Virus record (IMG/VR): IMGVR_UViG_3300022719_000039
Coordinates: 18,935-82,934 of that record
Reading direction: 5' to 3' (one strand)
Origin: a virus
DNA: 64,000 nt
In this document: in pieces, positions 54,264-61,200 of the stretch
How the letters are laid out: every line of letters starts with the position of its first letter
Numbering within the stretch: position 1 is the stretch's first letter
Made by a program: the position numbers and the translations under genes
Notes under the pieces: generated by a model
What the model saw: the letters and a program-made list of their open reading frames with translations, nothing else
Database searches by the model: none
Told to the model about the DNA's origin: nothing

Positions 54264-54968
54264 ATGAATGCATTTAGTGTAAAAAAAGAAGAACTATTTA
54301 ACGTTCCCATTCCTCAAAAAACTGATAGTTATACACCTGTACCTAATAGAGATTTAATACTTGCTATTGAAGAAGTATTAGATAACTACGGTTATAATAC
54401 AATAGCTGAACATTATGAATTAGGTGGTAAAGGCCAACAAATGTTTGGTTATAAGACATTAGTTAGTCCATCGTATAATGGTGATGGAGAACAACAAAGA
54501 ACTCTAGGTTTCAGAAACTCTTACAATAAAAGTTTAGCAGTAGGTATTGTTAGTGGAAGCAGAGTAATAGTATGCTCCAACCTAATGTTTGAAGGAGATA
54601 TTGTTAAATTAAGAAAACATACTACTAATGTATTTGCAGACCTATATAACATGATTGTAGATGCTATACTTGGTATAGAAATAAATTTTGAAAAACTATT
54701 GAAGGATACAGAAAGATTAAAGAGTTGTGAAATTAGTAAGACTGACATGGCTGAACTTCTGGGAAAAATGTTTATAGAGGAGGAACTTATAACATCTACA
54801 CAGCTTAACCATATAAAAAATAGTTGGAAAGAAAAAGGTGAAGAACATATGACTGGTTGGGATTTTATGAATTATTGCACTGATAGTATGAAAGTATTAC
54901 ATCCATCAACAAGGATAGATTCTCAACTAAAGGTTCATAATTATATAGATACAACCTTCAAAGCGTAA
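54264..54968 (+). CDS. DUF932-like phage protein
   Basis: YTPVPN, RNSYNKS, RVIVCSNL, RKHT. Confidence 0.75.
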   Translation: MNAFSVKKEELFNVPIPQKTDSYTPVPNRDLILAIEEVLDNYGYNTIAEHYELGGKGQQMFGYKTLVSPSYNGDGEQQRTLGFRNSYNKSLAVGIVSGSRVIVCSNLMFEGDIVKLRKHTTNVFADLYNMIVDAILGIEINFEKLLKDTERLKSCEISKTDMAELLGKMFIEEELITSTQLNHIKNSWKEKGEEHMTGWDFMNYCTDSMKVLHPSTRIDSQLKVHNYIDTTFKA

Positions 54969-54997
54969 ATTAAAAGTTAAACTTAAAAAATGAAATC

Positions 54998-55255
54998 ATG
55001 GAAAATAACTTTATAGGCGGTGGAACATTTCGATTTGGAAAATATAAGGGAAAGTCATTCATTGATGTAGCCTTATCAGACGAGGCCGATTATTTTATCT
55101 GGCTTTGGGAAAGATCGGAAAAAGGTAAATTATATTTAGATTCAGATTTACATGAATTTATTAAGAAAAACTTGTCGAGATTACGTCAAGAAGCAAAGAG
55201 ATGCAAAGAAGCCTATGAAGCCGATAGGTACGACGAGCTTATGAGAGACTGGTAA
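54998..55255 (+). CDS. Small protein with an FGKYKG motif (exodeoxyribonuclease X C-terminal-like)
   Basis: FRFGKYKGKSFIDV....DYFIWL. Confidence 0.65.
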   Translation: MENNFIGGGTFRFGKYKGKSFIDVALSDEADYFIWLWERSEKGKLYLDSDLHEFIKKNLSRLRQEAKRCKEAYEADRYDELMRDW

Positions 55256-55287
55256 AGTAGAAATTAAAGACAAAAACGTAGAAAATT

Positions 55288-56250
55288 ATGACAAAAGTTA
55301 AAGAACAGGCCAGAAAAAGGCAAAAGGGCCTAGATGCTATTACCAAGGAAATACTACCTACTACTATTTGGAAATATGATGGGCATAGAATTGTTCCTAA
55401 AAGGAATAATGGAGCCATAGAATTAAAAAATATAGAAGCCTTAAAACCGGTTACCAATATGAAGGTAACCGGTAATTACAGAGAAAGAAAAGAGCAGATT
55501 AATAAATTAAAAAGTAAGGTCGATGATAGAGAAAGCATAATTAAAGCTGTTCTACAGGATCAAAATAGACTTATGGCTTATAAGAGAAGCACAGACATTC
55601 TTGATGAAATGACATTAGAATTTCTTGAACATAGAGTATATGAGTCTAAGGAGATATTAAAGAAAAAAGATAAACAAGTTCAAAAGCAGTTAGACCTTGT
55701 AGGCCATCCTATAGTTAGTATTGCCAATAACGTTGCAGGTATTGGGAAGATGACTATTGCATATATGCTTGTATATGTTGATATAAGTAAATGCAATTAT
55801 GCAGGAAACTTATGGAGCTATGTTGGCATAGTCAAGCCTTCTTATGAAAGGTATTCAAAAGGAGAAAGTAGCGGAGGATGTAAACCACTTAGGGTGGCTC
55901 TTCATAGGACTGCTACTTCAATTATAAGAATGAGGGGCAGAACTGAAATGAATAAATATATAGAGGTTTATGATAGAGAAAAGCTAAGGTTATCTAAGTC
56001 TAGACAGATAACTAAATCCAGAAACAGAAAAGGAGAACTAAAAGAAATGGCTTGGAAAGATACTATGAAAAGCCATAGACACGGTGCAGCTATAAGGAAG
56101 GTTATTAAACATATCTGTGCTGACTGGTGGTTTGTACATAGAACTTTAGAAGGTCTGCCTACACCAGAACCTTATGTCATGGATTATTTAGGACATAAAA
56201 ACTGGATAAGACCAGAAGAAAGAGGATGGAAAATACACCCAATAAAATGA
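55288..56250 (+). CDS. TIGR-associated (Tas)-like protein: N-terminal HNH-like motif, coiled coil, IS110/Nop RNA-binding domain
   Basis: VAGIGKMTIAYML, NLWSYVG, GGCKPLRVAL, YIEVYDREK and RHGAAIRKVIK match the IS110 C-terminal/Nop domain. No DEDD RuvC domain is visible. N-terminal DGHRIVPKRNNG...KNIEAL.PVTN. Immediately followed by a dual-spacer array. Confidence 0.8.
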   Translation: MTKVKEQARKRQKGLDAITKEILPTTIWKYDGHRIVPKRNNGAIELKNIEALKPVTNMKVTGNYRERKEQINKLKSKVDDRESIIKAVLQDQNRLMAYKRSTDILDEMTLEFLEHRVYESKEILKKKDKQVQKQLDLVGHPIVSIANNVAGIGKMTIAYMLVYVDISKCNYAGNLWSYVGIVKPSYERYSKGESSGGCKPLRVALHRTATSIIRMRGRTEMNKYIEVYDREKLRLSKSRQITKSRNRKGELKEMAWKDTMKSHRHGAAIRKVIKHICADWWFVHRTLEGLPTPEPYVMDYLGHKNWIRPEERGWKIHPIK

Positions 56251-56270
56251 ACTTAATTAAAAGGGAGTTA

Positions 56271-56564
56271 ATGAATTATTAAAGATGATTAGTAGTCAAT
56301 AAACTGAAATGAATTAAAAAACCAAAAATAGTAGTCAAATAACCTAAATGAATTAATAGCCAAAATATTAATCATAACCCTTAAATGAATTAATTATAAA
56401 AAGTTTCAAAAAGAGTTAATGAATTAAAATACAATAATTTTAATATCAGGGAATGAATTAAAGGAAAGAAGAATACATGAGAAAAAAATGAATTAAATAA
56501 AATAAGTACTATAAAACTTAAATGAATTAAAGATGACAAAATCTCAAATTACTAAAATGAATTA
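56271..56564 (+). ncRNA. TIGR-like array block 1 (8 complete units plus terminal edge repeat)
   Basis: ATGAATTA at 56271, 56309, 56348, 56385, 56419, 56453, 56488, 56522 and 56557. Each unit is edge, 9 nt, loop starting with A and ending TCA/ACA/TTA/CTA, 9 nt, A. Confidence 0.85.
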
Positions 56565-56576
56565 AAACAGGAGATT

Positions 56577-56753
56577 ATGAGACAAATCCTTGCTTTCTTT
56601 GATAGAAACTACAACCGATTGTTTAATAATAAAAAATGTATTAAGGTTAATTTCCACGAAGATGAGTTTGAATATCAAGACATACTATTTGATGGTAAGG
56701 AATACTTTAGATACTTAGGTAAAGGTTGGTTAGTTAAAAAAGTTTTAATTTAA
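56577..56753 (+). CDS. Small ORF (58 aa) between array blocks
   Basis: MRQILAFFDRNYNRLF...YLGKGWLVKKVLI*, preceded by AGGAG. Confidence 0.55.
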   Translation: MRQILAFFDRNYNRLFNNKKCIKVNFHEDEFEYQDILFDGKEYFRYLGKGWLVKKVLI

Positions 56754-56762
56754 AAGTATTAA

Positions 56763-56867
56763 ACGAATTAAGGCTAGTAACTTTTCAAGAGAAAATAATA
56801 AATTAGTGCCTCCAATTTTTCAATAGAAACTAATGAATTAAAATAGTGAAAAAAATCAAAAAAAGCG
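56763..56867 (+). ncRNA. TIGR-like array block 2 (3 units)
   Basis: ACGAATTA 56763, ATAAATTA 56798, ATGAATTA 56833. 35-nt period, loops ending TCA. Confidence 0.75.
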
Positions 56868-56921
56868 GCTCAATTTTGTTAAACTAAAAAAAAATGAAAG
56901 CAAAAGAAAAAAAGAAGAAAA

Positions 56922-57182
56922 ATGGACATTAAAAAAAGGAAGATATGGTGTATTGTAGAGAGAAAAAACTTTAGTAAAGATTCAGCATCATGGGAAGAAC
57001 ATCTGATAAAAGCTAATGTTGACCATTATGAAGCGGAACAATATATTAATTCTACTAAAAACAAAAAAAGAGTCCTGTTTGCCTATGCTCGTCATCCTAT
57101 AAGTGGAACAATGGATATGATGTGGAACTTACGATATGTAGATAGTGAAAAGACGGTTAAGAAGTATGCGAAGCTTAAATAA
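56922..57182 (+). CDS. Hypothetical protein
   Basis: Co-oriented ORF. Confidence 0.55.
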   Translation: MDIKKRKIWCIVERKNFSKDSASWEEHLIKANVDHYEAEQYINSTKNKKRVLFAYARHPISGTMDMMWNLRYVDSEKTVKKYAKLK

Positions 57183-57338
57183 AATTCAATTATCACAAGA
57201 AAGGACGATGTTAACTAAAAAAGGAACATATAGTAGTTCTGAAATTCTTTCTATAGAAACTATTGAATCTTGCAGATCATACTATCGTTTAAGAAATACA
57301 GACAACCGTATTATTCACTTTAAATTAACATAAGATAA

Positions 57339-57767
57339 ATGAAAAAAGTTATTCCAGAATATAAAATAGAAGAAAACGGGGATATTGTTATAGATATAGA
57401 ACCTAAAGCAAACCATAGACCAAGATTCCAGAAGAATACTGGCACAGCCTATATACCAAATGACTACAAAAGATATGTTGAGCTTTTAAAAAGAGCCTTT
57501 AAAGATGCAAACATTCCCAAGAAAGAATGGATAGGTTTAGACATAATTTTTTACCTGAAAACAAATAAAGACCATTTTATACCGCATAGGAAGAAACCAG
57601 ACTGGGATAATCTGGCTAAAGGTGTTATGGATGCTTTAGTTAAAGCTAGGATTGTAAAGGATGATTGTACTATTTCTTATGGTTCAGTATATAAAGTTAA
57701 TAGTGTTAAAAATAAAGTCGTAGTTAAGTTATTACAGTTACATGAGTTGCCTTCCTTTATCAACTAA
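57339..57767 (+). CDS. rusA: RusA-like Holliday junction resolvase
   Basis: PKANHRPR, KKPDWDNLAKGVMDAL, DDCTI. Confidence 0.88.
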   Translation: MKKVIPEYKIEENGDIVIDIEPKANHRPRFQKNTGTAYIPNDYKRYVELLKRAFKDANIPKKEWIGLDIIFYLKTNKDHFIPHRKKPDWDNLAKGVMDALVKARIVKDDCTISYGSVYKVNSVKNKVVVKLLQLHELPSFIN

Positions 57768-57776
57768 TAAAGAATT

Positions 57777-57977
57777 ATGCATATAAAAGACTTAAAATCA
57801 TATTTAGAGGATGGAGAAGGTTCAATAGTTTATAATAAGCTGGAAGGAAAAAGATTGCAGGTTTATAACCTAGAAAGGAATACAGTTATGTTTCATGAAG
57901 TTGGAGATATTAATAAAAGAGCAGGGGCAGTAAATTATCCTTTAGATACTAAATACTATAAGTTAATAAAGAAATGA
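57777..57977 (+). CDS. Hypothetical protein
   Basis: ORF with ATGA coupling to the ligase. Confidence 0.5.
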   Translation: MHIKDLKSYLEDGEGSIVYNKLEGKRLQVYNLERNTVMFHEVGDINKRAGAVNYPLDTKYYKLIKK

Positions 57978-59188
57978 TGTATGCACTAACCAAGAATGGA
58001 AATATAAAGACATATAAAGTTTCCGTAGATGATAATACCATTCTAAGAGAATCAGGACTACTGAATGGTAAAATAACTACTAAAGAAGAAGTTATAACCA
58101 AGCCTAAAAATATAGGTAAGTCTAACGAATTAAGCCCTAATGAAGTAGCAAAAAGCAAAGCTAAACATTATACTTACCGAGCTAAGGTAGATGGTTATAA
58201 GTCTATAGATGATATAATTACAATTATAAATGAAGGCAAGTCTGAAGTAATAGGAACTGATAAGTATGTAGGAACTGAAGAGTATATATTAAAATATTAC
58301 AGAGATAACTATAAATATAACTCCGATAATTGTAGAAGACCTAAACCGATGCTTGCTAATAAAATAAGAAATGATATATTTGATAGAAACCAATCAGTAT
58401 TTGTGCAAAGAAAGTATAATGGTATAAGATGTATGGCTGCACTTATCAATTATAATATATTTCTTTTTTCCAGAGATGGAAAGTTATTCAATATTCCTCA
58501 TATCACTGAAGAATTAAAATCATACTTTAAGCCCAAAGATAATAAAAGGTTTTTCCTAGATGGAGAAATATATATTCATGGTAAAAAGCTACAAGATATA
58601 ATTTCACTTGCAAAAGCACCAGATATGTTTGAAACACTTAACTTAGAGTTTCATGTATTTGATATGGTTTTTGGTAATCATGAGACAGGGGAAGGAAATA
58701 AGAGATGGTTTGAAAGATTAGTAGAACTGACAAAACTATTTAAGAATAGAATTCAAGATAAAGTAAAACTAGTTGATACAGTCGAAGTATTTAATCAAGA
58801 CGAATTGTCAGAGATACATAATAAATTTACCAATGAGGGATATGAAGGAAGTATCCTACGTCTAGACAAAGGTCTTTATGAATTCGGATATAGAAGTAAT
58901 TACCTTCTAAAGTTAAAATCAACTTTGAAAGAGATAGTTAAAATAGAAAATGTAGTTGATACAGATAAAGAAAAAGGTATAGCCTTGTTTGTATGCAGAG
59001 ATAAAAGGGGTAACTTATTCAATTTAAGACCAAATGGTAGTGTAGGCAACAAAGTAGAATGGTTTAACCAAGCAAATACAGGTGGGCCTAAAGACCCAAC
59101 AGGAAAAGAAATAGAAATAACTTTTCATGAACACACTAAATATGGAATACCTTTTCATATAACTAAAACAAAGATAATATGGGATTAA
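57974..59188 (+). CDS. ATP-dependent DNA ligase
   Basis: PMLA, QRKYNGIRC, FSRDGK, LDGEIY, FHVFD, EGYEGSILR, LLKLK, GIPFH. Confidence 0.92.
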   Translation: MMYALTKNGNIKTYKVSVDDNTILRESGLLNGKITTKEEVITKPKNIGKSNELSPNEVAKSKAKHYTYRAKVDGYKSIDDIITIINEGKSEVIGTDKYVGTEEYILKYYRDNYKYNSDNCRRPKPMLANKIRNDIFDRNQSVFVQRKYNGIRCMAALINYNIFLFSRDGKLFNIPHITEELKSYFKPKDNKRFFLDGEIYIHGKKLQDIISLAKAPDMFETLNLEFHVFDMVFGNHETGEGNKRWFERLVELTKLFKNRIQDKVKLVDTVEVFNQDELSEIHNKFTNEGYEGSILRLDKGLYEFGYRSNYLLKLKSTLKEIVKIENVVDTDKEKGIALFVCRDKRGNLFNLRPNGSVGNKVEWFNQANTGGPKDPTGKEIEITFHEHTKYGIPFHITKTKIIWD

Positions 59189-59454
59189 CTTTTTATAATA
59201 TTAAATTCCTCGATAAATTTAACATGTTTTCTTTAGTAGACAGAGAAGATATAAAACAACTCAAGGCTGAAATATTTAATAATAACAAGGAAAGAAAAGA
59301 TAAATGTATAAAAGAAATTACTAAAATATCAGATAAGGATTACAGAGAGATTCTTTATATAGATAACTTTGTATTTCTAAGAATAGGAAGTAATTATAGA
59401 ATTATAGGAATTGATAATGAAATAGTAAAAAAATGGAAACAACAGAACAAGTAA
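59179..59454 (+). CDS. Hypothetical protein
   Basis: Overlapping, co-oriented ORF. Confidence 0.45.
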   Translation: MGLTFYNIKFLDKFNMFSLVDREDIKQLKAEIFNNNKERKDKCIKEITKISDKDYREILYIDNFVFLRIGSNYRIIGIDNEIVKKWKQQNK

Positions 59455-60425
59455 AGTTATTAGATTATTACAAAAGACCTGAAATTTCAAAGAGTGATTT
59501 AGTCTTATTTAATACAGTAGGGCCTAACAAGTTTAACTTTATAAAACAGGAGCAGTTCCTAAGATTGGAAAGTTCTCCAATAGAGGAAAGTAAAAGTTTA
59601 AAGAAAGGTAAAGCTTTACATGCTGCTATACTTGAACCAAAAGTGTTTAAAGAATTTTATGTGCCTGTAGAATATGAAACACCTAAGTCACCGCAACAGA
59701 TAAAGTTTTGTAATTTAGTAGTAGACAAGTTATCAATGCAAGTTCCATTGGATAAGTCTATATTGGAATCTGCAAAAGAATCTTATTCCAGTAAGAATAA
59801 GTCTAATAGTGATATGTATAGTACGGGCATAGGTTTATATGAGCATTTAGAAAGTTACATTGATTTTCTAAAATTTTCAAAGACTGATGAGATTGTTATT
59901 CTAACTAAGAAAGAGCATGAATACATATTGGGAGCTAAGGACGCTTTAGAAAAAGATCCGGTTACTAAAGATATTCTATATCATAAGCTTGAGGAATCTT
60001 TTGTAGAGGAAGAGATTTACTGGACAAGAGGTAATATGGACTTGAAGTCCAAGTTAGACAAGCTTGATATAGATTTTAGTAAGAAATATGCCGTGCTTAC
60101 TGATCTTAAAACTACAAAAGCACCAAATCCCAGTAGTTTTATTTGGGAAGTAAACAGATATAAAATACACTGGCAGGTTGATTACTATAAACATGCTATT
60201 ACTTGGAAATATCCAGAGCTGGAAAAGATATACAATAGAATAGTAACAGTAGAATTACAACCTCCTTTTGATCATTGTGTGTATAGTGTTGGTAGAGAAA
60301 AACTGCAAACTGCTTTTATAGAGTGGAGTAAAGTTCTGGAAGAGTTAGAATGGCACTATATAAACAATGTTTGGCAGGACAAAGATTACTATGAGAATAA
60401 GCTTGTAATAATAGATGAAGAATAA
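59433..60425 (+). CDS. PD-(D/E)XK exonuclease (RecE/ExoVIII-like, DUF3799-like)
   Basis: ISKSDL, GKALHAAILEP, KSKLDKL, TDLKTT, QVDYY. Confidence 0.85.
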   Translation: METTEQVKLLDYYKRPEISKSDLVLFNTVGPNKFNFIKQEQFLRLESSPIEESKSLKKGKALHAAILEPKVFKEFYVPVEYETPKSPQQIKFCNLVVDKLSMQVPLDKSILESAKESYSSKNKSNSDMYSTGIGLYEHLESYIDFLKFSKTDEIVILTKKEHEYILGAKDALEKDPVTKDILYHKLEESFVEEEIYWTRGNMDLKSKLDKLDIDFSKKYAVLTDLKTTKAPNPSSFIWEVNRYKIHWQVDYYKHAITWKYPELEKIYNRIVTVELQPPFDHCVYSVGREKLQTAFIEWSKVLEELEWHYINNVWQDKDYYENKLVIIDEE

Positions 60426-60437
60426 ATTAATCATCTA

Positions 60438-60540
60438 ACGAATTAATATAAAGAAAAATACAATAGTTGGCAATGAATTAAGAAAACAAAGAGTCAAAGA
60501 AAAACAATGAATTATGAGAACCAATTTTCAATACAATTAA
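60438..60540 (+). ncRNA. TIGR-like array block 3 (3 units, remote from the tas-like gene)
   Basis: ACGAATTA 60438, ATGAATTA 60473 and 60507. Same 9-nt/loop/9-nt layout, followed by degenerate ATGTTTAT at 60541. Confidence 0.78.
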
Positions 60541-60571
60541 ATGTTTATTTTAAACTAAAACTAATAAAATT

Positions 60572-60970
60572 ATGAAAAAGCTAGCATTATTAATTATCGC
60601 ATTTGTATTCTTTAGTGTTGTAGAAGCCCAGAACACAGGACAAATAAACGATGATGTGTTTAAACCTTCTAATAACATACTTCTCTCCAATGAGGTAATG
60701 ATCTTTAAAGGTGGTAAGTATCAAGGTAGTATTGTTATAGAGAGAATAGATTACGGGTTTTCAGAACAAATAAATATATTCGATGGAATATTTGATGACA
60801 ATATTAAAAGGAATGAGGATGCTTATTACGGCATTGATAGCTATAACAATAATAATTATAATAACACGAACTATAACTATGGCAGCAAAGGAGAACAAAA
60901 AAGACAAATAAATCCTTCTACTAACCCTGATTATAGACTAGCTGAAAGTTTGTTGAATTTAAGTAAATAA
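60572..60970 (+). CDS. Secreted/periplasmic protein with a signal peptide and Asn-rich tract
   Basis: MKKLALLIIAFVFFSVVEA|Q, a Bacteroidota-style SPI cleavage site. Confidence 0.65.
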   Translation: MKKLALLIIAFVFFSVVEAQNTGQINDDVFKPSNNILLSNEVMIFKGGKYQGSIVIERIDYGFSEQINIFDGIFDDNIKRNEDAYYGIDSYNNNNYNNTNYNYGSKGEQKRQINPSTNPDYRLAESLLNLSK

Positions 60971-60972
60971 CA

Positions 60973-61200
60973 ATGTACTTTAAGGTCGATCTTAATGCCA
61001 AAAGGTTTGAAGAATTGATAGAAGACTTAAAGAGGAATAGTATAGAAGAAGCTCAACTACGCAAAGTTGTTGAGCTTCTTCTTAAAAAGTTTTCAGAGGA
61101 ATTTTTTAGTTACTATACAGACATAACAACTAAAGGTTTGCCAGAAGATAATCTCAAGGTAGTGAATGATATGATTAAAAATCATAAACCCCTTTCTTAA
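60973..61200 (+). CDS. Hypothetical protein
   Basis: Co-oriented ORF. Confidence 0.5.
   Translation: MYFKVDLNAKRFEELIEDLKRNSIEEAQLRKVVELLLKKFSEEFFSYYTDITTKGLPEDNLKVVNDMIKNHKPLS

Follow-up and report, generated by a model that had tools for sequence, protein, structure and literature searches.

The DNA analysed here, called the window throughout, is a stretch of 64,000 nucleotides (nt) from a viral genome (positions 18,935 to 82,934 of IMG/VR record IMGVR_UViG_3300022719_000039), and the gene in question is an open reading frame (ORF) of 320 amino acids (aa) at 55288..56250 (+) of this stretch. Judged by homology and by a structure model, the product of this ORF is clearly a TasH, as the effector with an HNH in RNA-guided TIGR-Tas systems is called; it consists of an HNH module, a coiled coil and a Nop domain. 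The two metal-site histidines of SpTasH, H54 and H58, are absent from its HNH module, and their places are taken by Asn57 and Thr61. We put at roughly 60% the probability that the protein is a naturally nuclease-impaired TasH, which would still make and bind tigRNAs and would act as a guided DNA binder. This estimate draws on sequence comparison, on modelling and on analogy with other Tas effectors; the architecture, the predicted fold, the tigRNA-processing dyad and the adjacent guides are each supported by homology.

Identification of the protein as a TasH

When the sequences of the PDB were searched with phmmer, the window protein matched SpTasH of Salicola phage CGphi29 in one stretch, residues 30-315 (E 3.4e-67), and the TasR 9mty (E 6.9e-11). 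The AlphaFold2 model, made with 120 relatives in the alignment, has a mean predicted local distance difference test score (pLDDT) of 93.7 and a predicted template modelling score (pTM) of 0.88, confidences that, like that of the domain model described below, lean on alignments of mostly canonical relatives. In Foldseek this model was closest to 9w04_B, the complex of TasH with tigRNA and double-stranded DNA (TM 0.83/0.86 over 310 columns), with TasR and the IS110 recombinases next. The single Pfam match above cutoff was Transposase_20 at residues 147-220 (22.8 bits, cutoff 21.3), which corresponds to the Nop-like domain common to IS110. Taken together, the sequence match to SpTasH, the 9w04_B fold and the restriction of the Pfam match to the Nop-like part point to a TasH-type effector and not to a truncated IS110 recombinase. 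An IS110 recombinase could be ruled out, as no RuvC/DEDD domain was found by Pfam or in the model and the N-terminus is an HNH module. An earlier note on this DNA, made from the sequence alone, had already concluded from the lack of RuvC that the protein is not an intact IS110 recombinase, and this conclusion holds, the predicted domains being HNH, coiled coil and Nop.

The closest whole-protein relative is 54% identical. When residues 1-70 were used as the query, only the self-match was obtained (one match of three candidates) and no nearer N-terminal relatives were found. Two long helices at 55492..55701 (+) (residues 69-99 and 107-138, assigned by DSSP from the AlphaFold2 model) form a predicted coiled-coil dimerisation region, the role being assigned by homology to SpTasH.

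Fold and register of the HNH module

In the model, the N-terminal HNH module (residues 1-66, 55288..55485 (+)) consists of a helix at residues 2-11, strands at 31-34 and 49-52 and a helix at 54-61. The two strands and the second helix were the same when the N-terminus was modelled alone (pLDDT 94.2). Since these three elements are predicted, the N-terminus does not lack the beta-beta-alpha fold on which the HNH assignment of the earlier note depended, and the nearest structures are those of TasH and of other HNH nucleases. In the Foldseek search with the domain model, TasH (9w04_A/B) ranked at the top with TMq 0.76-0.77, and was followed by the Gme HNH nickase, the HNH domains of Cas9 and IscB, the pyocin and colicin DNases, McrA and T4 endonuclease VII. 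VIA-align, run over 48,161 chains, returned HNH-bearing entries in all of the first 26 rows, with Z values of 3.9-6.7, which the tool itself rates as moderate.

A hidden Markov model (HMM) of the N-terminus, built from 120 relatives with the window sequence excluded, singled out the tasH ORF among the 542 ORFs of the genome (58.8 bits, E 1.3e-17), the runner-up having an E of 2. The N-terminus alone scored 64.5 bits, compared with 13.2 bits for the best of 1000 shuffles. A chance likeness to HNH is ruled out by these scores. Pfam HNH gave no match to the window protein at E up to 10; the family member P0090 passes Pfam HNH PF01844 with 26.9 bits (cutoff 21.4).

The register was determined with a profile of 30 TasH N-termini (alignment A2), which matched two HNH sequences: that of a group II intron maturase (6me0_C) at E 7.7e-4, and that of the colicin E7 DNase at E about 2e-3 to 4e-3. 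In both alignments TasH position 33, an Asp or His, coincides with the leading histidine of the HH doublet and Arg34 with its second histidine; Asn48 corresponds to the asparagine of the motif, and positions 57 and 61 to the two helix histidines. By these alignments, the HNH-like pattern and the register that had been proposed from the sequence were right. In colicin HNH sites the role of general base belongs to the second doublet histidine, and the metal is held by the three remaining histidines. His131 of colicin E9 is reported to coordinate zinc (PMC3973344). The net charge of the window N-terminus, +8 compared with a family median of +4, lies within the 5-95% range (-2 to +9) and is not distinctive.

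Substitutions at the active site

Residues 30-62 of the protein (nt 55375-55473 of the ORF at 55288..56250 (+)) read YDGHRIVPKRNNGAIELKNIEALKPVTNMKVTG, in agreement with the sequence quoted earlier. They were compared with an alignment of 121 sequences, made up of 120 relatives (the window's own protein included) and SpTasH, and with a wider set of 209 distinct TasH that is described in the next section. Asn57 (codon AAT, 55456..55458 (+)) occupies the position of SpTasH His54; the family has His at this position in 118 of the 121 sequences, Asn in two and Arg in one, and His is present in 200 of the 209 distinct TasH. Thr61 (codon ACC, 55468..55470 (+)) stands at the position of SpTasH His58 and aligns with the last histidine of the colicin E7 helix, where 116 of the 121 have His. 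The family motif G-G-x-Y appears as Asn41-Gly42-Ala43-Ile44 (55408..55419 (+)): at position 41 Gly is found in 116/121 and at position 44 Tyr in 114/121, and Gly42 is common to all 121. The segment Asp31-Gly32-His33-Arg34 (55378..55389 (+)) contains the invariant Asp31 (121/121) and Arg34, with His33 at the D/H metal-ligand position (Asp in 93 sequences, His in 25, Asn in two and Lys in one). Asn48 is also shared by all 121. Thus, the window protein keeps Asp31, His33, Arg34, Gly42, Asn48, Pro54 and Met58. All six core HNH positions are canonical in 116 of the 121 sequences.

The replacement of the distal histidines by Asn and Thr, which the earlier note had pointed out, is therefore real, and mutants of related nucleases suggest what it might mean. 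SpTasH H54A, altered at the equivalent of position 57, is described as catalytically inactive but still able to bind DNA and to repress green fluorescent protein (GFP) (bioRxiv 10.64898/2026.08.11.744272). At the equivalent of Thr61, the H131A substitution in colicin E9 is stated to have led to loss of Mg-dependent nicking (secondary citation in PMC3973344).

The arginine at the general-base position, on the other hand, had been counted as an anomaly and proved to be the family norm. The general-base histidine that colicin-type sites carry at the end of strand 1 is absent from the window TasH, and Arg34 is found there; the same arginine is present in 121 of 121 relatives. Because it is invariant, and occurs in the active SpTasH as well, Arg34 is uninformative about the window copy. 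In the wider set 199 of the 209 TasH have Arg at this position, and four distant members have His. SpTasH is described as an active Mg-dependent nuclease with a cleavage rate of 0.01 per min, about 6,000-fold below that of SpCas9, and we suggest that the family-wide arginine may be a partial cause of this slow cleavage.

In SpTasH, T240 and Q241 have been proposed to form a docking platform for the HNH domain (PMC13421893). The window protein has Arg-Lys at the corresponding residues 247-248 (56026-56031), positions at which 163/209 family members have Thr and 137/209 have Gln, respectively. Changes of this type in the docking platform were not associated with loss of His57 (3/9 vs 79/200).

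Correlated loss of the site across the TasH family

The set of 209 sequences was derived from pooled TasH proteins and from ORFs of 47 of 50 viral loci. Duplicates were dropped, as were proteins shorter than 280 aa and those in which one or more of the six core positions fell in a gap; of 317 proteins 224 passed, and 209 of these were distinct. One candidate, P0239 (3261 aa, with 16 stretches matching residues 30-60), was rejected as a spurious match, being a fibronectin-III repeat protein.

The equivalent of His57 is missing in nine of the 209. In these nine proteins other parts of the site have been lost as well: His61 is gone in 7/9 compared with 4/200 of the proteins that have His57 (Fisher p 3.7e-9), the D/H residue at position 33 in 6/9 vs 5/200 (p 3.4e-7), and Tyr44 in 7/9 vs 12/200 (p 5.2e-7). 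Loss of Gly41 showed no association with loss of His57 (1/9 vs 15/200, p 0.52). The residues found at positions 57 and 61 of the nine variants were N/T once, N/N twice, R/Q three times, T/H twice and W/Q once. Such a pattern, in which the site is lost as a whole and the replacements vary, is expected of inactivation and not of one defined alternative chemistry. Besides the window protein and L023, the TasH proteins with a degenerate site are P0004, P0125, P0064, P0133, P0140, P0171 and P0184. The R57/Q61 pair is alike in P0064, L023 and P0133 although the trees place these lineages apart, and it recalls the pocket arginine described for PateTasR.

The extent of divergence was also compared between the HNH module and the rest of the protein. 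At HNH positions conserved in at least 90% of the family the window protein deviates at four of nine (family median 0), which ranks it 5th of 209, whereas at non-HNH positions conserved to the same degree it deviates at four of 50 (median 1). The ratio between the mean identity of the HNH module and that of the rest had a median of 0.98. The three lowest ratios among the 121 sequences were 0.56, 0.58 and 0.65, the last being that of the window protein, and these belong to exactly the three sequences that lack His57.

In a FastTree phylogeny based on the non-HNH columns the His57 state changes nine times. Nine changes were also obtained with an IQ-TREE quick tree, made without the HNH columns from 61 of the 209 rows (the nine variants, three nearest neighbours of each, every seventh of the remainder, and SpTasH). 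In the latter tree P0064, L023 and P0125 lie in separate starred clades amid canonical relatives, and the window protein groups with P0003 to P0006 in a clade of five that is also starred. When the window protein and P0004 were made sisters, the tree was not rejected in the approximately unbiased (AU) test and was 2.4 log-likelihood units better (p-AU 0.558), so that loss of His57 is to be counted as eight or nine events. FastTree placed the window protein with P0009 when full-length sequences were used, and basal to a 10-member clade when the non-HNH part was used; the protein is on a long branch and we are unsure of its exact sister. Asn57 may have been inherited from an ancestor common to P0004. 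The two proteins differ at position 33 (His in the window protein, Asn in P0004) and at position 61 (Thr vs Asn), P0004 having Asn at all three ligand positions.

In a further TasH relative (L047:1829-2749 and P0172) the loop between the two HNH strands has been removed by a deletion of about nine residues, and Cys stands in place of the invariant Arg. Here the HNH has thus been eroded in a different way.

The processing dyad and the TIGR-like arrays

The Nop domain (55708..56247 (+)) contains Tyr296 and His303 (nt 56173-56175 and 56194-56196), the counterparts of SpTasH Y289 and H296; the tyrosine is found in 121/121 and the histidine in 105/121 of the family. In SpTasH this dyad is reported to process pre-tigRNA into tigRNAs (PMC13421893). 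His275, Arg285 and Arg312 of the window TasH are also kept.

Directly 3' of the tasH stop codon begins a TIGR-like array (block 1, 56270..56565 (+)), in which nine exact or near-exact AATGAATTA edges, eight consecutive ones being exact, bound eight units of 34-39 nt. Each unit is composed of an edge, a 9-nt spacer A, a 7-12-nt loop with A as its first letter and, in most cases, TCA as its last three, and a 9-nt spacer B. The loop repeats vary in length and sequence and are weakly conserved. Two units of about 34 nt form block 2 (56763..56840 (+)), and three units with the grammar of block 1 form a satellite block 3 (60438..60543 (+)) about 4 kb from the tas gene. Blocks 2 and 3 are intergenic and both begin with the ACGAATTA variant of the edge. 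Between blocks 1 and 2 there is a 58-aa ORF (56577-56753) without a Pfam match, the start of which and the slot following the ninth edge overlap.

The arrays of relatives in viral contigs have AATGAATCA-type edges, from which AATGAATTA differs by one letter, and AATGAATTA is thus a variant belonging to the family. Dual-repeat TIGR arrays have been described as uniform 36-nt units; compared with such systems the window array, with its units of 34-39 nt and loose loops, is atypical. In L023, which also has a degenerate site (core state D-N-R-N-R-Q), the array is a clean one of 36-nt units with GCGAGCCA / GACAACCA repeats. Elsewhere, then, a lost site is found together with retained guides.

Targets in the phage's own genome were searched for with the 13 spacer pairs, written as A followed by the reverse complement of B with gaps of 0-2, in the 82.9-kb sequence. 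This target geometry is our own derivation from the cleavage rules as given in PMC12045711. With up to two mismatches three matches were obtained, compared with 1.2 ± 1.1 for shuffled spacers, and the best single match had two mismatches; with up to three mismatches the numbers were 18 and 19.6 ± 4.6. The other spacer orientation, applied to eight units and the phage genome, did not support a self-target either.

Interpretation of the degenerate site

A dead DNA binder or repressor, one of the two readings offered in the earlier note, is the reading best supported by these data, and it is still one that we infer. According to this proposal a TasH dimer would process and bind tigRNAs, and spacers A and B would pair with opposite strands of an 18-bp site. 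As the active-site tyrosine is gone and only one of the three colicin-type metal ligands is left, DNA cleavage would be abolished or greatly slowed, and the bound particle could block transcription or other transactions, for example as a repressor or a roadblock. The HNH domain would then serve to contact DNA or as a structural module; possibly it has been retained because of its contact with DNA, as described for the dead RuvC domain. The precedents on which we base the guided-binder proposal are the dead-RuvC TasR, TasA and the engineered SpTasH H54A.

Several observations weigh against an impaired nuclease. His33 is kept at the first ligand position, as in canonical members (25/121), Asp31, Arg34, Gly42, Asn48, Pro54 and Met58 are kept as well, and the fold is confidently predicted. 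Asn57 may have been maintained since the split from P0004 and thus be under constraint, and H54A of SpTasH is not equivalent to H54N. Asparagine is a competent Mg2+ ligand at the helix position of the HNH domains of Cas9 and T4 endonuclease VII. Moreover, the 13 spacer pairs lack an above-chance target in the phage's own genome.

Some of the same observations would suit an active nuclease with an 'HNN-like' site, in which His33 and Asn57, perhaps together with Asp31, would hold a hydrated Mg2+ or Mn2+ and both strands would be cut, perhaps with an altered metal preference or rate. Such a site could be built on the His33 found also in canonical members, on the invariant Asp31, Arg34, Gly42 and Asn48 in an intact predicted fold, and on an asparagine that is common to P0004, a sister not rejected by the AU test, and that may be maintained; the Asn-liganded HNH domains of Cas9 and T4 endonuclease VII are among the structural neighbours. 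Nevertheless, we regard this explanation, the main rival of the impaired nuclease, as rather unlikely. The losses at positions 57, 61, 33 and 44 are strongly correlated in the family and resemble decay, P0004 has Asn at all three ligands and other lineages have R/Q, T or W, and the HNH module is the fastest-diverging region in exactly these proteins without His57. The colicin E9 mutant without the histidine equivalent to Thr61, which is stated to have lost Mg-dependent nicking (PMC3973344), argues in the same direction.

It is improbable that the whole locus is decaying and non-functional, the changes in the HNH, the variable loops and the uneven units being relics of an eroding system. Units of 34-39 nt in place of a uniform 36 nt, poorly conserved loops, the long branch (mean non-HNH identity 0.49, compared with 0.57-0.65 for the other sequences compared) and the four deviating conserved non-HNH positions would fit such a locus, but the 320-codon ORF is intact and yields a confident model, neither the Y/H processing dyad nor the Nop residues have been lost, the edge is exact in eight consecutive copies, the array grammar recurs in two more intergenic blocks, and the sequence is identical in the contigs of three to four runs (see below).

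An intrinsic nickase, in which altered HNH chemistry would cut a single strand, was the example that the earlier note gave for its other reading, and it found no support. Although SpTasH is reported to nick when one spacer is mismatched, so that nicking is within the repertoire of the family, this stems from target and guide and not from the protein. TasH is described as a homodimer of symmetric build, with two identical HNH domains that attack one strand apiece (PMC13421893; bioRxiv 10.64898/2026.08.11.744272); a substitution in the gene would alter both active sites, and hence affect both strands, alike, which makes this alternative very improbable.

Genome setting and reliability of the sequence

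The window is the final 64 kb of a single phage-like contig, which is 82,934 bp long and has a G+C content of 31.8%. The neighbours of tasH are genes for a primase-like protein (with weak Toprim and zinc-ribbon matches), DUF932, RusA and an ATP-dependent DNA ligase. In tblastn the ligase matched distant phage ligases only, with at most 32% identity. An 85-aa ORF directly 5' of tasH (54998-55255) has a sub-threshold match to an ExoX-like C-terminal motif (22.8 bits, cutoff 26.5).

The whole tasH stretch is present in contigs of runs X1 and X2 with zero differing letters, and contigs of run X3 contain identical pieces over 55200-56023 and 56150-56950; the HNH codons are thus covered without mismatch in runs X1 to X3. 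Run X4 contributed short identical pieces over 55256-55406, which include part of the 5' end of tasH and stop short of codons 57 and 61. The four runs belong to a single study, and two may be those from which the window itself derives.

Promoter-like sites in 54900-57400 were as frequent as in shuffled sequences (12 vs 11.3 ± 3.2). Terminator-like sites in the same region numbered two, compared with 0.8 ± 0.9 in shuffles, and none was at the end of an array. An Rfam scan of 54900-61000 gave no match at E up to 1.

Novelty and significance

By Faure et al. the HNH domain is referred to as a 'predicted active HNH', and RuvC as active or inactive. The seven passages of bioRxiv 10.64898/2026.09.09.750476 that name HNH or TasH make no mention of inactive HNH domains. 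In other TasH papers (PMC13421893; bioRxiv 10.64898/2026.08.11.744272) the inactive form used is the engineered H54A only. No natural TasH with a degenerate HNH was found in the TIGR-Tas literature searched, which was covered mostly at the level of titles and abstracts, the Mol Cell structure paper, supplements and TIGRSafari being outside this scope.

TIGR-Tas is a young field, and the natural repressors described so far are dead-RuvC TasR and TasA. The precedent of dead TasR makes a degenerate TasH less startling. If the guided-binder reading is true, the HNH branch, too, would have lost cutting repeatedly in the course of evolution, such proteins would offer compact DNA binders, ready-made and about 320 aa long, and regulation, not defence, would come into view as a common role of phage TIGR systems. 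A more far-reaching version, which we put forward tentatively and at somewhat less than even odds, is that among the 209 TasH sampled nature has converted TasH into degenerate-HNH effectors on eight to nine separate occasions, with at least one lineage keeping its array, and that the window copy is a natural 'dTasH' with three dispersed guide blocks that would silence genes of the host or of rival phages rather than cut them.

Comparison with known systems

The IS110 recombinases IS621 and ISCro4 resemble the window protein in their C-terminal Nop-like domain, as seen in the Transposase_20 match and in Foldseek (E 5e-5 to 1.6e-4, TM 0.43-0.46). Unlike these, the window protein is without an N-terminal RuvC/DEDD domain and bridge RNA, and has an HNH module and a TIGR array instead.

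Colicins E7 and E9, the pyocin DNases and the maturase HNH (6ME0) are what the TasH N-terminal profile matches best outside the Tas proteins (E 7.7e-4 to 4e-3), and they have in common with TasH the pattern G-G-x-Y ... D-N ... P-x-x-H-x-x-x-H. The HH doublet of the colicins is in TasH a D/H residue followed by Arg, and the window protein lacks, in addition, both helix histidines and the tyrosine.

SpTasH, of which structures are available (PDB 9W02-9W04, 9VZX and 21KL), is about 42% identical to the window protein over residues 30-315 and agrees with it in fold and in its architecture of HNH, coiled coil and Nop. Both proteins have the invariant Asp, Arg and Asn of the HNH and the Tyr/His dyad for tigRNA processing, and both are phage-borne with an array just downstream. 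They differ in the metal site, where D30, H54 and H58 of SpTasH correspond to H33, N57 and T61 of the window protein, in the motif G-G-x-Y (N-G-x-I in the window), and at T240/Q241 (R247/K248). The arrays differ as well: that of SpTasH has GCGAGCCA / GACAACCA repeats in uniform 36-nt units, whereas in the window the edges are AATGAATTA, the loops are loose and the units measure 34-39 nt.

Similar in proposed function are the dead-RuvC TasR proteins PateTasR and CsTasR and the nuclease-less TasA, which have been described as RNA-guided transcriptional repressors (bioRxiv 10.64898/2026.09.09.750476). As in these Tas effectors, in which by that account the nuclease site is naturally degenerate or absent and guide-directed DNA binding is kept, the window TasH would have lost cutting and kept binding. 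TasR and TasA are measured repressors, whereas the inactivity of the window TasH is inferred, and the window protein differs from them in being of the HNH type, in belonging to a dual-repeat system and in keeping the Y/H dyad. In TasR the dead nuclease domain is reported to be retained and to contact DNA. In PateTasR an arginine is described as filling the dead RuvC catalytic pocket, which is reminiscent of the Arg57 found in three TasH lineages.

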